In this document: in pieces, positions 4,180 to 23,535 of the stretch | Position numbering within the stretch: position 1 is the stretch's first letter | Layout of the letters: each line of letters begins with the position of its first letter | Virus record (IMG/VR): IMGVR_UViG_2859799533_000003 | Coordinates: 1-23,535 of that record | Length of the DNA stretch: 23,535 bases | Direction: 5' to 3' (one strand) | Source of the DNA: a virus | Taxonomy: Duplodnaviria; Heunggongvirae; Uroviricota; Caudoviricetes | Notes under the pieces: generated by a model | Told to the model about the DNA's origin: nothing | Seen by the model: only the letters and a program-made list of their open reading frames with translations | The model's database searches: none | Translations under genes and position numbers: made by a program

Positions 4180-4827
4180 GTGACTGTGAGAGCACTACTG
4201 ACCCCTGAAATTGCCCCGCGTATGGGGATCGTATTGTTCAGACCAGGTTCAGAGCTGATGCCCCTGTTTATGCAGGGGCGTGTCCTGCTGGAGCCTGAGC
4301 CGGAGCGTTATTCATCTTTCGCCAGTGGTGCCGTTCCGGCGGCATCACAACCGCTGGCGGATGATCCTGCCGTTCGGGCCGTGTTCCGCAATGAGGAAGT
4401 GATCCGTCGTGCTGGTGGCGTGGAATGTCTTGAAAGCTGGTTACTTCGTGAAAAAGGCTGCCAGTGGCCTCATTCCGACTGGCACAGCGAGAACATGACC
4501 ACAATGCGACACGCTCCGGGTGCAATCCGTCTGTGCTGGCACTGCGATAATCAGCTGCGCGATCAGTTCACGGAACGGCTGGAATCAATGGCAACGGATA
4601 ACTGTGCCCGCTGGGTGTTGTCTGTTGTGCGTCGGGATCTCGGTTTTGATGACAGTCACGTTGTGACAATGCCGGAACTGTGCTGGTGGCTGATTCGTAA
4701 TGATCTGGCGGATGCCTTACCGGAAAGTGCAGCCCGTAAGGCACTGAGATTACCGAAGCCTGTTGTGCCGACTGTTACCCGGGAAAGTGACCTTGTGCCT
4801 TCGGTTCCTGCCACCAGCATCATCTAG
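4180..4827 (+). CDS. hypothetical phage protein (215 aa, GTG start; Cys/His-rich central region)
   Basis: Long ORF in nin-like region; CQWPHSDWHSENMTTMRHAPGAIRLCWHCDN cluster; start codon uncertain (GTG 4180 or ATG 4222). Confidence 0.4.
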   Translation: MTVRALLTPEIAPRMGIVLFRPGSELMPLFMQGRVLLEPEPERYSSFASGAVPAASQPLADDPAVRAVFRNEEVIRRAGGVECLESWLLREKGCQWPHSDWHSENMTTMRHAPGAIRLCWHCDNQLRDQFTERLESMATDNCARWVLSVVRRDLGFDDSHVVTMPELCWWLIRNDLADALPESAARKALRLPKPVVPTVTRESDLVPSVPATSII

Positions 4828-4842
4828 GATAAGGCGAAAAAG

Positions 4843-5175
4843 GTGCTGGCGCTGAAAGTGGATCCGGAGTCGCCGGAGTCTTTTATGTTACGCCCAAAAC
4901 GTCGCCGCTGGGTTAATGAAAAGTACACGCGCTGGGTTAAGACACAGCCGTGTGCATGTTGTGGAAAGCCCGCTGATGATCCCCACCACCTGATAGGTCA
5001 CGGTCAGGGTGGAATGGGAACAAAAGCGCATGACCTTTTTGTGTTGCCTTTGTGCAGAAAACACCATGACGAACTGCATGCGGATACCGTGGCATTTGAA
5101 GAGAAGTATGGCTCCCAACTGGAGCTGATATTTCGTTTTATCGATCGCGCGCTGGCGATTGGTGTGCTGTCCTGA
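4843..5175 (+). CDS. DUF1364 (YbcO-like) Cys/His-motif protein, putative nuclease
   Basis: Motif pattern CACCG...HHLIGHGQGGMGTKAHDLFVLPLCRKHHDELH matches recalled YbcO family of lambdoid nin regions; GTG start at 4843 or ATG at 4885. Confidence 0.55.
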   Translation: MLALKVDPESPESFMLRPKRRRWVNEKYTRWVKTQPCACCGKPADDPHHLIGHGQGGMGTKAHDLFVLPLCRKHHDELHADTVAFEEKYGSQLELIFRFIDRALAIGVLS

Positions 5176-5192
5176 TTTTGTGGAGAAAGTTG

Positions 5193-5573
5193 ATGCGTGA
5201 TATTCAGATGGTTCTTGAACGCTGGGGGGCATGGGCTGCAAGTGGTAACACCGGGGTGGACTATTCTCCGATCGCTGCCGGATTCAAAGGACTTTTACCA
5301 TCTGCCACTAAACCACGTCCGGCCTGCTGCGATGATGACGGACTTATCATTGAAAACTGTCTTGCTCGTCTGAAGCAGAAAAAACCTGAGGAGTATTCGC
5401 TTCTCATTGCTCATTATTTGTTGCGAATATCAAAAAGACAGATAGCCAGGACGAGAAAGAAAAGCGAAAAAGCAATACGAATTGAGATGCAGATAGCCGA
5501 AGGGTTTATTGACGGATGTTTGTCTGTGCTGGGGGTAAGACTGGAGATGGACGACTGGCTGCTAAAAAAGTAA
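5193..5573 (+). CDS. Q: late-gene antiterminator, Q-like (short Stx-phage/phage-21 type)
   Basis: 126-aa ORF from ATG 5193 with GGAGA SD; N-terminus MRDIQMVLERWGAWAA resembles Q of Stx/lambdoid phages; followed by terminator-like hairpin and tRNA/late region as in Stx phages. Confidence 0.6.
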   Translation: MRDIQMVLERWGAWAASGNTGVDYSPIAAGFKGLLPSATKPRPACCDDDGLIIENCLARLKQKKPEEYSLLIAHYLLRISKRQIARTRKKSEKAIRIEMQIAEGFIDGCLSVLGVRLEMDDWLLKK

Positions 5574-5787: not shown

Positions 5788-5985
5788 ATGCTGAAACAGC
5801 AGGATATGACAGAAACCGCCAGAGTGGTGTTTAATGAATTAAGCGTCACCGAACCGGCGATAGTCGGGGAGATTGCGCAGAATACTTACCTTTCACGCGA
5901 ACGCTGTCAGTTAATACTGACCCAACTTGTTATGGCGGGTCTGGCAGACTATCAGTTCGGTTGTTACAGACGCCTTCAGTCCTGA
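5788..5985 (+). CDS. hypothetical small protein (66 aa)
   Basis: ATG 5788 preceded by ggaaaaggga SD-like purine run; immediately followed by a strong terminator. Confidence 0.4.
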   Translation: MLKQQDMTETARVVFNELSVTEPAIVGEIAQNTYLSRERCQLILTQLVMAGLADYQFGCYRRLQS

Positions 5986-5999
5986 AGGCTTTTTTATTT
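5972..5999 (+). terminator. rho-independent terminator
   Basis: 7-bp stem gccttca/tgaaggc (5972-5978 / 5983-5989), 4-nt loop, then ttttttattt. Confidence 0.55.
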
Positions 6000-6135: not shown

Positions 6136-7185
6136 ATGCTTAATACTGTAAAAATATCCAGTTGTGAGTTAATCAACGCCGACTGCCTGGAATTTATCCG
6201 GTCGTTACCCGAAAATTCTGTTGACCTGATAGTCACGGACCCGCCGTACTTTAAAGTGAAGCCTGAGGGCTGGGATAACCAGTGGAAGGGCGACGATGAT
6301 TACCTGAAGTGGCTGGAGCAGTGTCTGGCGCAGTTCTGGCGGGTGCTGAAACCTGCCGGAAGTCTTTACCTGTTCTGTGGTCATCGCCTGGCATCTGATA
6401 TCGAAATCATGATGCGTGAACGCTTCAGTGTGCTGAACCATATTATCTGAGCGAAGCCGTCCGGACGCTGGAACGGATGCAACAAGGAAAGCCTGCGGGC
6501 GTATTTCCCCGCCACAGAGCGCATTCTGTTCGCGGAACATTATCAGGGGCCGTACCGCCCGAAAGATGATGGCTATGAGGCGAAGGGCAGGGTACTGAAA
6601 CAGCATGTGATGGCCCCGCTGATTTCTTACTTTCGTGATGCGCGAGCTGCCCTGGGGATAACGGCAAAACAGATTGCAGATGCCACAGGAAAGAAAAACA
6701 TGGTGTCGCACTGGTTCAGTGCCAGTCAGTGGCAGTTGCCGAATGAAAGCGATTATCTGAAATTACAGGCGCTGTTTGCCCGGGTGGCAGAAGAGAAACA
6801 TCAGCGGAGAGAACTGGAAAAGTCCCATTACCAACTGGTCAGCACATACAGTGAGCTGAGCCGGCAGTATATGGAACTGCTGAGTGAATATAAAAATTTG
6901 CGGAGGTATTTCGGTGTGACGGTGCAGGTGCCGTACACCGATGTGTGGACGTATAAACCGGTGCAGTACTATCCAGGGAAACATCCGTGCGAAAAACCGG
7001 CAGAAATGTTGCAGCAGATAATCAACGCGAGCAGTCGTCCGGGAGACCAGGTTGCAGATTTTTTTATGGGCTCAGGTTCAACGGTAAAAGCGGCACTGGC
7101 GCTCGGGCGTCGTGCGATTGGCGTTGAACTGGAGACCGGACGTTTTGAGCAGACAGTCAGGGAAGTTCAGGATTTAATCGTTTGA
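6136..7185 (+). pseudogene. DNA methyltransferase (N6A/N4C type: DPPY motif then FxGxG SAM motif) interrupted by an in-frame TGA at 6448-6450
   Basis: ORFs 6136-6450 and 6607-7185 are in the same frame and the frame stays open from 6451; motifs VTDPPYF (N-terminal) and FFMGSGST (C-terminal). Confidence 0.7.
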
Positions 7186-7234
7186 AACGGATGAGATTGC
7201 AGAATTAATTACGCACCATTATTATTCTGCTCCC

Positions 7235-7310
7235 GGCCCTTTAGCTCAGTGGTGAGAGCGAGCGACTCATAATCGCCAGGTCGCTGGTTCAAATCCAGCA
7301 AGGGCCACCA
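7235..7310 (+). tRNA. ileZ: tRNA-Ile2 (anticodon CAU, lysidine-type; Met cannot be excluded)
   Basis: 76 nt, perfect 7-bp acceptor and T stems, anticodon loop ctCATaa, encoded CCA; closely resembles recalled E. coli ileX. Symbol by synteny with Stx-phage tRNA trio. Confidence 0.8.
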
Positions 7311-7317
7311 TCACATA

Positions 7318-7391
7318 CCGCCATTAGCTCATCAGGAAAGAGCGCCAGCCTTCGAAGCTGGTTGCGCGGAGTTCGGGTCCCCGAAGGCGGT
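7318..7391 (+). tRNA. argN: tRNA-Arg (anticodon UCG), slightly non-canonical stems
   Basis: Cloverleaf folded by hand: D stem gctc/gagc, anticodon stem ccagc/gctgg, loop ctTCGaa; one mismatch each in acceptor and T stems; no encoded CCA. Symbol by synteny only. Confidence 0.55.
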
Positions 7392-7407
7392 TCATTATCT
7401 GTATCCT

Positions 7408-7484
7408 GCGTTGTTAGCTCAGCCGGACAGAGCAATTGCCTTCTAAGCAATCGGTCACTGGTTCGAATACAGTAGAACGCGCCA
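7408..7484 (+). tRNA. argO: tRNA-Arg (anticodon UCU)
   Basis: D stem gctc/gagc, anticodon stem attgc/gcaat, loop ctTCTaa, T loop ttcgaat, encoded CCA. Symbol by synteny only. Confidence 0.7.
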
Positions 7485-7734
7485 CACTTATTTTCCCTGG
7501 CTCGCTTTTGCGGGCTTTTTTTTAAATGTCTCACAATTCAGGCGGTTGACTGTTGTCTGGTTTGCGGGGAGTTTGTTAAAAGAAACTGGCATGGTGAATC
7601 CCCCTGTGCGGAGGGGCAATCAGCAACTGGTGTTTTGTCCCGACCCTTATCCTTTCTGTGCGGGTTCAGGTGCTGATACTGAACTCACCGGGAGGCACCC
7701 GGCACCATGCAATGGCACATAGCGCCACTCTCCA

Positions 7735-7760
7735 GCCCCTCTCCGGAGGGGCTTTCTTAT
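7735..7760 (+). terminator. terminator-like GC hairpin with T-rich tail in the tRNA to nanS-p intergenic region
   Basis: gcccctc tccg gaggggc (7735-7752) followed by tttcttat. Confidence 0.4.
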
Positions 7761-7986
7761 GGACAAAAAAATCCCGCGCTGGGAGACGCGGGCGGCAAGG
7801 AATAAACAACAAAACGTGAAGTAATATTTCAGCTGGCGAATAATATCCGACAGTAATCACTCTGCGCAATAGCGCGGCCTTTTTCATATTGCGGGCTGTT
7901 GTCTATCTTCTGCCATTGTCCTGTAACTTCCGGACTTCAGCCCGCTCCTCATTTTACTCACAATATTATCCAGGCCGGGAGGATTC

Positions 7987-19506: not shown

Positions 19507-20258
19507 ATGGCAACACCAAATCCCTTGAGCCGGTAAAAGGTGCCGGTACCACTCTGTGGGTTTACAACGGCAAGGGTGATGCTTATGCAAACCCGTTGTC
19601 AGACGATGACTGGCAGCGACTGGCTAAGGTGAAGGATCTGACGCCGGGCGAGATGACGGCAGAATCCTACGATGATAACTACCTGGATGATGAAGACGCG
19701 GACTGGACCGCGACCGGGCAGGGGCAGAAATCTGCAGGTGATACCAGTTTTACGCTGGCCTGGAAACCGGGAGAGGAAGGCCAGAAAGGGCTTATAGGCT
19801 GGTTTGAAAGCGGCGATGTCCGGGCCTATAAAATCCGTTTTCCGAATGGCACGGTGGATGTGTTTCGTGGCTGGGTCAGCAGTATCGGTAAGGCCGTGAC
19901 GGCGAAAGAAGTGATCACCCGCACGGTGAAAGTCACTAACGTGGGTAAACCTTCTGTAGCGGAAGAACGCAGCAAAATTACGCCGGTCAGTGCGATTAAG
20001 GTGACGCCGACATCCGGTACGGTGGCAAAAGGGAAAACAACCACCCTGACGGTTTCTTTTGAGCCGGAAAGTGCAACCGACAAGACGTTCAGAGCGGTTT
20101 CCGCCGATCCGTCGAAAGCCACCATTAGTGTGAAAGATATGACAATTACGGTAAACGGCGTGGCGACAGGTAAGGTGCAGATCCCTGTGGTGAGCGGAAA
20201 TGGTCAGTTCGCCGCAGTGGCTGAAGTCACCGTTACTGAAGCGGGCGCTGCAGGGTAA
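19507..20258 (+). pseudogene. V: major tail protein V-like, frameshifted near the N-terminus (1-bp deletion in C run at 19530-19531)
   Basis: MATPNPLS then stop; the adjacent frame continues [41 protein letters not shown]... matching recalled lambda V through to the stop at 20258. Confidence 0.75.
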
Positions 20259-20271
20259 ACGGAGGTAATAC

Positions 20272-20703
20272 ATGTTTCTGAAAACAGAACAATTTGAATA
20301 TAACGGTGTGTCTGTCACGCTTTCCGAATTGTCTGCGCTGCAGCGTATCGAGCATCTTGCCCTCCTGAAACGGCGTGCAGAACAGGCAGAATCCTGCGGC
20401 AACCTGCAGGTAAGCGTGGAAGATCTCGTCAGAACCGGCGCGTTTCTGGTGGCGATGTCCCTGTGGCATAACCATCCACAGAAAACGCAGTCACCGTCAA
20501 TGAATGAGGCCGTGATGAAGATAGAGCAGGAAGTGCTCACCACCTGGCCTGCCGATGCCATTGCCCGGGCGGAAGACGTGGTGTTGTGCCTGTCCGGGAT
20601 GATCGAAGCTGTTCGTCCGGATACTGATATTACTGAAGTGGCGAAAAATAACACGCTGACTGATGATGATTTTTCTGCGGGAAAGTCTTCGACGGCGAGC
20701 TGA
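20272..20703 (+). CDS. G: tail assembly chaperone G-like
   Basis: 143-aa ORF with GGAGG SD; matches recalled lambda G (MFLKTE.FE.NGV.VTLSELSALQRIEHLAL ... AMSLWHNHPQKTQ.PSMNEAV). Confidence 0.85.
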   Translation: MFLKTEQFEYNGVSVTLSELSALQRIEHLALLKRRAEQAESCGNLQVSVEDLVRTGAFLVAMSLWHNHPQKTQSPSMNEAVMKIEQEVLTTWPADAIARAEDVVLCLSGMIEAVRPDTDITEVAKNNTLTDDDFSAGKSSTAS

Positions 20704-21143
20704 ACTTTGCCCTCAGACTGGCGCGTGAGATGGGGAGACTCGACTGGCGCGCCATGCTTGCCGGGATGACATCCACCGAATATGCCGACTGGCACCGTTT
20801 TTACCGCACGCATTATTTTCAGGATACCCAGCTGGATATGCATTTTTCCGGGCTGACGTACGCTGTACTCAGCCTGTTTTTTTGCGATCCGGATATGCAT
20901 CCCTCTGATTTCAGTCTGCTTGTCCCCCGGCATGAGGAAGAGCAGGTGGAGAGGCCGGATGAGGACAAAATGCTGATGCAGAAAGCGGCAGGACTTGCCG
21001 GAGGCGTCCGGTTCGGTGGGGACGGAGGGCGCGATATTTTATCGTCTGCGGATGTGGCGGATGTCATGGTGGATGATGCCGCATTAATGATGGCTTCAGC
21101 GGGGATTCCGGGAGGTGTGAGATATGTCCCAGCCGGTTGGTGA
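20272..21143 (+). CDS. GT: G-T fusion tail assembly protein made by programmed -1 frameshift
   Basis: Slippery heptamer G GGA AAG in the G frame at 20679-20685; -1 frame continues GKVFDGELNFALRLAREMGRLDWRAMLAGM... matching recalled lambda T. Confidence 0.7.
20679..20685 (+). other. programmed -1 ribosomal frameshift slippery site (GGGAAAG)
   Basis: Heptamer in register with G codons (G GGA AAG), 6 codons before the G stop; conserved lambda-type G/GT recoding signal. Confidence 0.7.

Positions 21144-22873: not shown

Positions 22874-23535
<662 letters not shown>

Follow-up and report, generated by a model that had tools for sequence, protein, structure and literature searches.

An ileZ-argN-argO-type tRNA cassette in a defective lambdoid prophage, with an apparently sound tRNA-Ile gene and two probably impaired tRNA-Arg genes

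The tRNA cassette of Stx-converting phages and its counterpart in the window

Many records of Shiga toxin (Stx)-converting phages annotate a group of three tRNA genes, ileZ (tRNA-Ile), argN and argO (both tRNA-Arg), with gene names that we take, also from the GenBank annotations, to go back to phage 933W. The features of this ileZ-argN-argO cassette are its gene order, its span of about 250 bp and its position between Q and the late genes, after a methylase gene. All of these are present in the stretch of viral DNA analysed here (23,535 nucleotides, referred to as the window), in which three tRNA genes were found:

7235 to 7310, + strand: ileZ, tRNA-Ile2-type, anticodon CAU, CCA encoded (ARAGORN; Rfam 72.5 bits)
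7318 to 7394, + strand: argN, tRNA-Arg(UCG) (ARAGORN, which places it at 7317-7393; Rfam 43.4 bits)
7408 to 7484, + strand: argO, tRNA-Arg(UCU), CCA encoded (ARAGORN; Rfam 53.4 bits)

ARAGORN predicts these three tRNA genes and no others in the 23.5-kb window. All of them lie on the + strand, and each exceeds the gathering score of 29 of the Rfam tRNA family RF00005 (E-values of 2e-14 for ileZ, 2e-6 for argN and 4e-9 for argO). Given these calls and scores, chance can be dismissed as an explanation of the three matches. An earlier note on this DNA, made by reading the letters, had described three phage tRNAs packed within 250 bp, with the anticodons CAU, UCG and UCU. The positions and anticodons agree with ARAGORN and Rfam, and the phage origin agrees with the identity of the trio, above 90%, to the annotated ileZ, argN and argO of Stx-converting phages. 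For the middle gene, ARAGORN, Rfam and RefSeq all give tRNA-Arg(UCG), with neither another anticodon nor a pseudogene call.

In a megablast search, the region 7150-7560 matches 297 phage records, most of them of Stx1- or Stx2-converting phages. The same query matches 3194 of the 5426 complete E. coli genomes, with at most 13 copies per genome, and the CAU/UCG/UCU trio is present in 103 of the 123 regions that we scanned (the window and 122 loci). A prophage of E. coli H3 matches at 100%, and RefSeq labels its three genes tRNA-Ile, tRNA-Arg and tRNA-Arg, without pseudogene flags. The trio of the window is thus almost certainly the ileZ-argN-argO cassette of lambdoid, Stx-type prophages. As identical sequences are annotated in RefSeq, it is already known, and the allele-level decay, the damage to argO and the anatomy of the cassette described below are refinements and no discoveries.

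The cassette of phage Stx2a_1447 (AP012536.1) matches that of the window in gene content, order and spacing, in the methylase gene upstream and in the terminator. Cassettes of this type are 91-93% identical to that of the window over 373-411 nt, and their ileZ is identical. The argN genes differ at 8 of 77 positions, including G52A, A58G, U67A and C74U in the window, and the argO of the window carries C61A and C67G. In contrast to the Stx-converting phages, the window has no stx genes after the trio and its host prophage is defective. The neighbouring features are the following:

5178 to 5573, + strand: antiterminator Q gene (Pfam PF06530, Phage_antitermQ, E-value 1.6e-52)
5972 to 5997, + strand: terminator-like hairpin plus T run (terminator scan; stem 5972-5989, tail TTTTTTATTT)
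6136 to 7185, + strand: N6/N4 DNA methylase pseudogene (two open reading frames, 6136-6450 and 6607-7185, both matching PF01555)
7560 to 7764, + strand: STnc100-family sRNA element, neighbour of the trio (Rfam RF02076, 142 bits)

The description of the trio as lying downstream of Q, also made in the earlier note, is correct as to order but loose, since Q is 1.66 kb away, with the terminator-like hairpin in between, and it is the split methylase pseudogene that stands directly upstream. The hairpin, located between Q and the methylase gene, may have a tR'-like role. The methylase is intact, with 349 amino acids, in the related loci L132 and L134-L136, and is split in the same way in L133, which is 100% identical to the window. 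The genes upstream comprise a replication-type gene, PerC, Dam, RusA, KilA-N and a split DUF968 gene, followed by Q and the split methylase gene. On the other side, the STnc100 element directly follows the terminator of the cassette in the window, and lies just after stxB in another locus (L002). As stxAB is found between the cassette and STnc100 in Stx2 phages, the window corresponds to a stx-less version of the locus.

After STnc100 come a DUF1737 gene and a SASA/nanS-p-type esterase, and then four IS elements (IS3-type, IS110, IS66, and an IS3-type element with an ALIL frameshift pseudoknot). This block stands where the lysis, terminase and portal genes would be expected, and is followed by capsid and tail genes; IS3-family copies also bracket the window. 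The host prophage is defective, as IS elements stand in place of the lysis, terminase and portal genes and both the methylase and the DUF968 genes are split. The window is 100% identical to GenBank CP026866.1 over 6.7 kb, a match reached through the esterase; the fragment of the split methylase returned no record. As a whole, the window is contiguous in none of the 5426 complete E. coli genomes, and this absence and the number of IS elements would suggest a Shigella-type chromosome.

Constraint and decay in the three tRNA genes

In order to compare alleles, we gathered 119 loci on viral contigs by an exact 17-nt match to the anticodon arm of argN. These loci are not independent samples, and the columns of the argN anticodon arm were left out of the diversity figure, because the choice of loci is biased there. 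Plain minimum free energy (MFE) folding did not return the cloverleaf as the MFE structure even for canonical ileZ and argO, and is thus not diagnostic; cloverleaf energies were therefore evaluated explicitly.

Among the K-12 tRNAs, ileZ is 89.5% identical to ileX, versus 68.4% to metT/metU. The two genes share the CAU anticodon, the loop CUCAUAA, the pairs C4:G69 and C5:G68 (U4:A69 and A5:U68 in metT), A73, U12:A23 and C29:G41, and A37 and A38 can also be read in ileZ from the alignment. The T stem is the same in both, whereas the T loop differs at position 59, pair 27:43 is A.C in ileZ and G.U in ileX, and pair 6:67 is U-A in ileZ and C-G in ileX, both sides having changed with pairing kept. 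Unlike the K-12 gene, ileZ is prophage-borne and part of a three-gene cassette. Pairs 4:69 and 5:68 are major identity elements for the TilS of E. coli (PMC11947777). The Ile2-type identity proposed for the CAU tRNA in the earlier note is thus supported by the closer identity to ileX, by C4:G69 and C5:G68, and by the RefSeq label of the identical gene, tRNA-Ile. Apart from the A27.C43 mismatch, which is conserved, ileZ is canonical in all cloverleaf features. It scores 72.5 bits in the window and in the compared loci alike, the window allele is identical in 95 of 115 copies on viral contigs, and the nucleotide diversity (pi) is as low as 0.004. By these measures ileZ appears to be under very strong constraint and looks intact, and it is very probably a functional tRNA-Ile2.

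A different picture is seen for argN. The earlier note had pointed to a non-canonical T loop and to mismatches in the acceptor and T stems of the middle tRNA, and had doubted its function on these grounds. The T loop UUCGGGU (with G58), A52.C62 and A6.A67 are all there, and the doubt is reinforced by the Rfam score, which at 43.4 bits is about 12.5 bits lower than that of canonical alleles (around 56 bits), and by a cloverleaf energy of -20.0 kcal/mol, about 8-11 kcal/mol weaker than that of canonical alleles (-28.3 to -31.3 kcal/mol). The cloverleaf lies 7 kcal/mol above the MFE structure, versus 1.5 kcal/mol for the commonest allele. The Rfam tRNA consensus shows high conservation of A58 and C61, and it is the former that is replaced in the argN of the window. 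The first pair, C1-G72, is also unusual. Beyond the oddities previously listed, the gene has U73 as discriminator and UCA where CCA is expected. The ArgRS identity elements of E. coli are A20 and C35, together with G or U at position 36 and A or G at position 73; argN has A20, C35 and G36, but U73.

In contrast, the argN of Stx2a_1447 is fully canonical, with paired stems, a UUCGAGC T loop and CCA. Across the 119 viral copies there are 37 alleles, with three main T loops (UUCGAGU in 60 copies, UUCGGGU in 29 and UUCAAGU in 24), and 79 of the copies have no stem mismatch. The diversity of argN (pi 0.074) exceeds that of ileZ by a factor of about 18 and that of argO by a factor of 3; relative to the spacers and flanks in the same set of loci (0.15-0.22) it is lower, by a factor of 2-3. 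In its stems, G-C to G-U changes that preserve pairing are common, whereas changes that break a pair are rare outside the lineage of the window. A covariation test on 36 alleles detected no pair with changes at both of its positions, nor any excess relative to shuffled sequences. The argument for selection on the argN structure is thus one from conservation, since no compensatory double substitutions were found; the divergence is too shallow for covariation to either prove or disprove such selection.

The T arm of the window type (A52.C62 and G58, together with A6.A67) defines a distinct lineage, comprising 23 of the 119 viral copies and present in about 850 of the 5426 complete E. coli genomes, O157:H7 strains included. 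It is annotated as tRNA-Arg everywhere it occurs in these genomes, and given this and its frequency the degenerate argN may be tolerated rather than dead. This allele, found in about 15% of the complete E. coli genomes, combines three mutations that occur together, weakening the T arm and favouring a shifted hairpin. An exact 36-nt scan of genome contigs with this T arm gave a single match, in a contig binned as 'uncultured Collinsella', which is probably mis-binned. The same lineage gathers further damaging changes, namely C74U, G10U and G50A. For a different allele, the argN5 of O157:H7 carried on pRARE2 in BL21, a preprint mentions in passing that tRNA-seq detected only fragments (10.1101/2025.08.20.671396), which fits weak constraint on argN. 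From its sequence, the argN of the window is the widespread degenerate allele with one further change, the loss of the encoded CCA, and on balance we favour the view that it is impaired as a decoder.

The UCU tRNA is more conserved as a family (pi = 0.024), and its main allele, with 51 copies on viral contigs, is canonical. The allele of the window is a rare one, found in 5-6 viral copies and in 23 of the 5426 E. coli genomes. Its substitutions C61A and C67G create the mismatches G53.A61 and G6.G67, and relative to the canonical allele they go with a decrease of the Rfam score from 70.1 to 53.4 bits and a weakening of the cloverleaf from -22.0 to -15.6 kcal/mol. Virtually all elongator tRNAs are known to have G53-C61 as the closing pair of the T loop. 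At the ArgRS-relevant positions, argO has A20, C35, U36 and G73. The K-12 counterpart argU shares with argO the anticodon loop CUUCUAA, the D stem GCUC/GAGC, A20, G73 and CCA; it differs in the acceptor, anticodon and T stems, with 72.7% identity overall. The T loop of argU is shared by the canonical argO allele but is absent from that of the window, which, unlike argU, has the 53:61 and 6:67 pairs broken. At these positions the argO of the window shows damage, with two pairs broken in a rare allele, and the balance of evidence inclines us to regard it as impaired in decoding too. In both tRNA-Arg genes, such deviations from the consensus do not in themselves prove a loss of function. The earlier note had overlooked the damage to argO.

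The nearest widespread relative of the window cassette is that of the ATCC 11775 type, from which it differs only by argN C74U, argO C61A and argO C67G. All three window-specific substitutions fall at critical tRNA positions; this gives a rough p of about 0.1 and is only suggestive, because more than half of the positions of the cassette are structurally relevant.

The reading that we consider likely overall is that of a known, self-contained cassette in a defective prophage, in which ileZ is sound and argN and argO are probably impaired. The view that all three tRNAs of the window are functional decoders, with their non-canonical features (G58, the A.C pair, the purine-purine mismatches at 6:67 and the missing CCA) tolerated, appears rather doubtful to us, although several observations speak for it. 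All three genes pass the Rfam gathering score and are called by ARAGORN, and the RefSeq label for the identical sequence is tRNA-Arg with no pseudogene flag. The T-arm allele of argN is common (in the approximately 850 genomes, 96% exact over 37 nt), G58 occurs also in argN alleles with perfect stems, and the anticodon arm, the D arm, A20 and C35 are intact; on this account, the A.C mismatch could be a protonated wobble pair and the missing CCA could be repaired by the CCA-adding enzyme. Against it stand the Rfam scores, 12-17 bits below those of the canonical argN and argO alleles, the high conservation of A58 and C61, and the near-universal closure of the T loop by G53-C61. The position of the argN cloverleaf well above its MFE structure, the accumulation of pair-breaking changes in the degenerate argN lineage and the fragments reported for the O157 argN5 point in the same direction.

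An even more radical possibility is that argN of the window type is no longer a tRNA, but a different structured RNA with a register-shifted hairpin built by its three lineage-defining mutations, such as a processing signal or a tRNA-derived small RNA. The predicted MFE structure pairs U54-A67, U55-A66, C56-G65, G57-C64 and G58-C63, G52A weakens the T stem, and one extra pair of this alternative hairpin comes from A58G and another from U67A, in an allele that is widespread. However, the self-complementarity of the T arm already gives canonical alleles four of these five pairs, the predicted structure gains nothing in MFE over shuffled sequences (z = -0.6), MFE folding misses the cloverleaf of good tRNAs as well, and covariation lends the hairpin no support; we regard this possibility as very improbable. 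Across the family, about 29% of the argN copies break universally conserved T-loop positions; with this, the high polymorphism of argN, the widespread T-arm allele and the argN5 fragments in view, it is conceivable, if improbable, that argN as a whole is no conventional decoder but a processing spacer, a tRNA-derived RNA or a decaying gene.

A promoter-like site, a predicted terminator and the probable exchange of the cassette

Two further elements frame the three genes:

7197 to 7225, + strand: candidate sigma-70 promoter (-35 TTGCAG at 7197-7202, 17-nt spacer, -10 TATTAT at 7220-7225)
7499 to 7524, + strand: predicted intrinsic terminator, GGCTCGC-TTTT-GCGGGC(T) plus T run (terminator scan)

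The -10 element of the candidate promoter, as read from the sequence, ends 9 nt before the mature 5' end of ileZ. A consensus promoter scan missed this site, because its -35 element is weak and matches the consensus at only 3 of 6 positions. The TATTAT element is invariant in all 28 distinct upstream contexts (113 loci), and a TTGnnn -35 element at 17-nt spacing could be followed through the main families of upstream context, including one in which the DNA further upstream is unrelated. One family reads TTGATT-17-TATTAT, and another has a different terminator just upstream. At the other end, the hairpin and T run after argO are kept in nearly all of the 41 distinct downstream contexts. Homology stops right after the T run, and is followed by unrelated families of sequence, including the stx2 upstream region, the STnc100 type and others. 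We consider it fairly likely that the cassette is a unit with its own promoter and terminator. It behaves as a unit exchanged among prophages, since the promoter-like site, the terminator and the boundaries are constant and the flanks vary.

In lambdoid phages, morons are autonomous promoter-gene-terminator inserts, and the cassette resembles them in having its own promoter-like site and terminator, constant boundaries and variable flanks. Unlike morons, it encodes tRNAs and no protein, and the likeness is known here from sequence conservation.

The conservation of the cassette exceeds that of its flanks. Relative to the ATCC 11775 type, the cassette is 99.1% identical (0.9% difference) and the flanks about 94% (5.8% difference); the window and E. 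coli H3 have the same cassette (100% identity) in flanks that are about 95% identical; and in five related chromosomes the cassette is 100% identical, with a difference of around 0.3% in the flanks. This pattern fits recombinational exchange as well as selection.

Codon usage and the proposed role of the cassette

The codons read by these tRNAs were described in the earlier note as rare in E. coli, which our control of 39 K-12 chromosomal genes bears out for AUA, AGA and AGG (3.3, 1.1 and 0.5 per 1000 codons; CGA and CGG reach 3.3 and 3.6). Its suggested check, for enrichment of the cognate codons in neighbouring late genes, comes out positive in phage genes for part of the set: AUA, AGA and AGG are 2-16 times more frequent in phage genes, but CGA is flat in those of Stx phages, where it is CGG that is increased. 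Relative to K-12, the odds ratios in the phage gene sets are 1.8-2.8 for AUA (with the exception of the late gene remnants of the window, 0.8), 4.4-8.6 for AGA and 8-16 for AGG. In stx2AB, AUA reaches 36.8 per 1000 codons (68% of the Ile codons) and AGA 14.7 per 1000. CGA, which pairs with argN by Watson-Crick rules, shows no significant enrichment in Stx phage genes relative to the 39 K-12 genes (odds ratio 1.1-1.5) and a modest one in the early genes of the window and in the H3 prophage (1.8-2.4), and CGG is increased 3-4 times in late genes, and 4.3 times in Stx late genes. The K-12 tRNA-Arg genes examined here are argQ/V/Y/Z (ACG), argX (CCG), argU (UCU) and argW (CCU), among which none has the UCG anticodon, and thus argN would add a new one.

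We also considered the rare codons as evidence of a specific co-adaptation between the tRNAs and the phage, and rejected this, as the IS genes of the window show an equal or stronger bias; the enrichment is therefore a general property of mobile DNA.

We infer every functional step of the following scheme from sequence. The host RNA polymerase would transcribe a tri-tRNA precursor of about 300 nt from the cassette promoter, ending at the intrinsic terminator, and RNase P and the 3' trimming enzymes would cut it into tRNAs, with the argN of the window needing addition of CCA. C34 of ileZ would be lysidinylated by the host TilS, and the tRNA, charged by IleRS, would read AUA. Charged by ArgRS, argO (UCU) would read AGA and, to a lesser extent, AGG, like argU of the chromosome, and argN (UCG) would read CGA and CGG. 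The trio would thereby add to the supply of tRNAs for codons seldom used by E. coli core genes but used several times more often by phage, stx and other mobile genes. If the phage were intact, Q-modified polymerase starting at pR' would, in addition, transcribe the cassette and continue past its terminator, into stx or the late genes. The prophage is dead here, and therefore only the autonomous unit can matter. In the window, ileZ probably still supplies AUA decoding, and decoding by argN and argO is probably impaired or lost.

Two other accounts question this role as such. The cassette could be a silent relic, untranscribed and contributing nothing to its host: the lysis, terminase and portal genes are lost, there are split genes beside the cassette, late transcription from pR' is pointless here and the promoter is only predicted. 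We find this improbable, as the window has kept intact promoter-like elements and an intact terminator, the same as in many other loci, and ileZ is the consensus allele. The cassette is also better preserved than its flanks, both in the five related chromosomes and in the comparison with ATCC 11775. Alternatively, the tRNAs might mainly counter an attack directed at tRNAs, as replacements or decoys for anticodon nucleases, for example toxins that cleave tRNA-Arg, rather than compensate for codon usage. Phage tRNAs are known to counter anticodon nucleases in other systems, the trio contains two Arg isoacceptors, and the argN anticodon is absent from the host. Yet nothing in our data points to such a role, and the anticodons are a good fit to the codon bias of the phage and stx genes; nor is evasion of a nuclease evident for argO, since its anticodon loop is identical to that of K-12 argU. 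We therefore hold this account to be extremely improbable, and retain that of a self-contained cassette for codon supplementation, of which the window holds a partly decayed copy.

The window and the family picture open no new question. For annotation, the message is that the window has one good tRNA-Ile2 gene and two possibly non-functional tRNA-Arg genes in a dead prophage. The picture of the family, with very strong constraint on ileZ, weak constraint on argN and three genes that go together with a conserved promoter-like site and terminator, may interest those who use argN, which is present in pRARE2/Rosetta 2, and those who work with phage tRNAs. The cassette is a textbook case of tRNAs carried by mobile elements whose own AT-rich genes overuse the corresponding codons, and in Stx phages it lies immediately upstream of the Shiga-toxin genes.

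Signs of prophage decay and insertion sequences

The gene that adjoins the tRNAs and a second gene upstream are both interrupted, which points to a decaying prophage. The first of them encodes a DNA methylase, for which the close relatives L132 and L134-L136 have an intact protein of 349 aa. In addition, the lysis, terminase and portal genes have been replaced by a block of four IS elements, and the window ends in transposase ORFs.

6136-7185, + strand: DNA methylase gene, split into two ORFs, adjoining the tRNAs
4180-5175, + strand: DUF968 gene, also split
10259-16713: block of four IS elements (IS3-type, IS110, IS66 with three ORFs, and a second IS3-type)
15781-15897: ALIL frameshift pseudoknot in one of the IS3-type elements
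1-654 and 22882-23535: near-identical IS3-family transposase ORFs, mutually inverted, at the window ends
19599-20933, - strand: 444-aa ORF with no Pfam match

The last of these runs antisense to the tail genes, in the region of tail assembly chaperone G, and is probably spurious.

Variant tRNA genes in the cassette

The widespread degenerate allele of argN, the middle tRNA gene, is defined by three mutations, G52A, A58G and U67A, which together favour a register-shifted hairpin (7371-7384 in the window) running from U54-A67 to G58-C63 with the loop GUCC. In the folding prediction this hairpin is the minimum free energy structure, and the cloverleaf lies 7 kcal/mol above it. That all three mutations favour the same predicted hairpin may be a coincidence.

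The degenerate T arm is also borne by the argN of a 56-kb contig (L003, UQIB01000015.1) that carries an E. coli-type ileZ-argN cassette and is labelled uncultured Collinsella sp.; in all likelihood this contig comes from an enterobacterial prophage and was mis-binned. In another locus (L055, IMGVR_UViG_2667527592_000004, about 7130-7210), the first cassette gene is ileZ-like and has the anticodon CGU (A35G), which leads ARAGORN to call it tRNA-Thr. In the T arm and the 3' strand of the acceptor stem it agrees with ileX and not with ileZ, and it is possibly an anticodon-shifted or recombinant variant.

Borders and probable exchange of the cassette

7197-7225, + strand: promoter-like site TTGCAG-17-TATTAT, conserved, 5' border of the tRNA trio
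7499-7524, + strand: intrinsic terminator, conserved, 3' border of the tRNA trio
7560-7764, + strand: STnc100 sRNA family element (Rfam, strong match, 142 bits)

The STnc100 element, a family linked to PasD sRNAs in a 2026 preprint, lies directly 3' of the cassette terminator in the window. In the Stx2 phage Stx2a_1447 the same element sits just 3' of stxB, so that the cassette and the element are in effect separated by an stxAB insertion.

In the comparison of cassette loci, homology begins at the promoter-like site and ends at the terminator, and the three tRNAs with their bracketing elements thus look like a portable transcription unit. Over 7150-7560, the tRNA cassette is 100% identical to that of E. 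coli H3 (L001) and 99.1% identical to that of ATCC 11775 (L131), whereas the 2 kb flanking it show only 94-95% identity to both. This difference indicates that the cassette has been swapped between prophages in a mosaic fashion.
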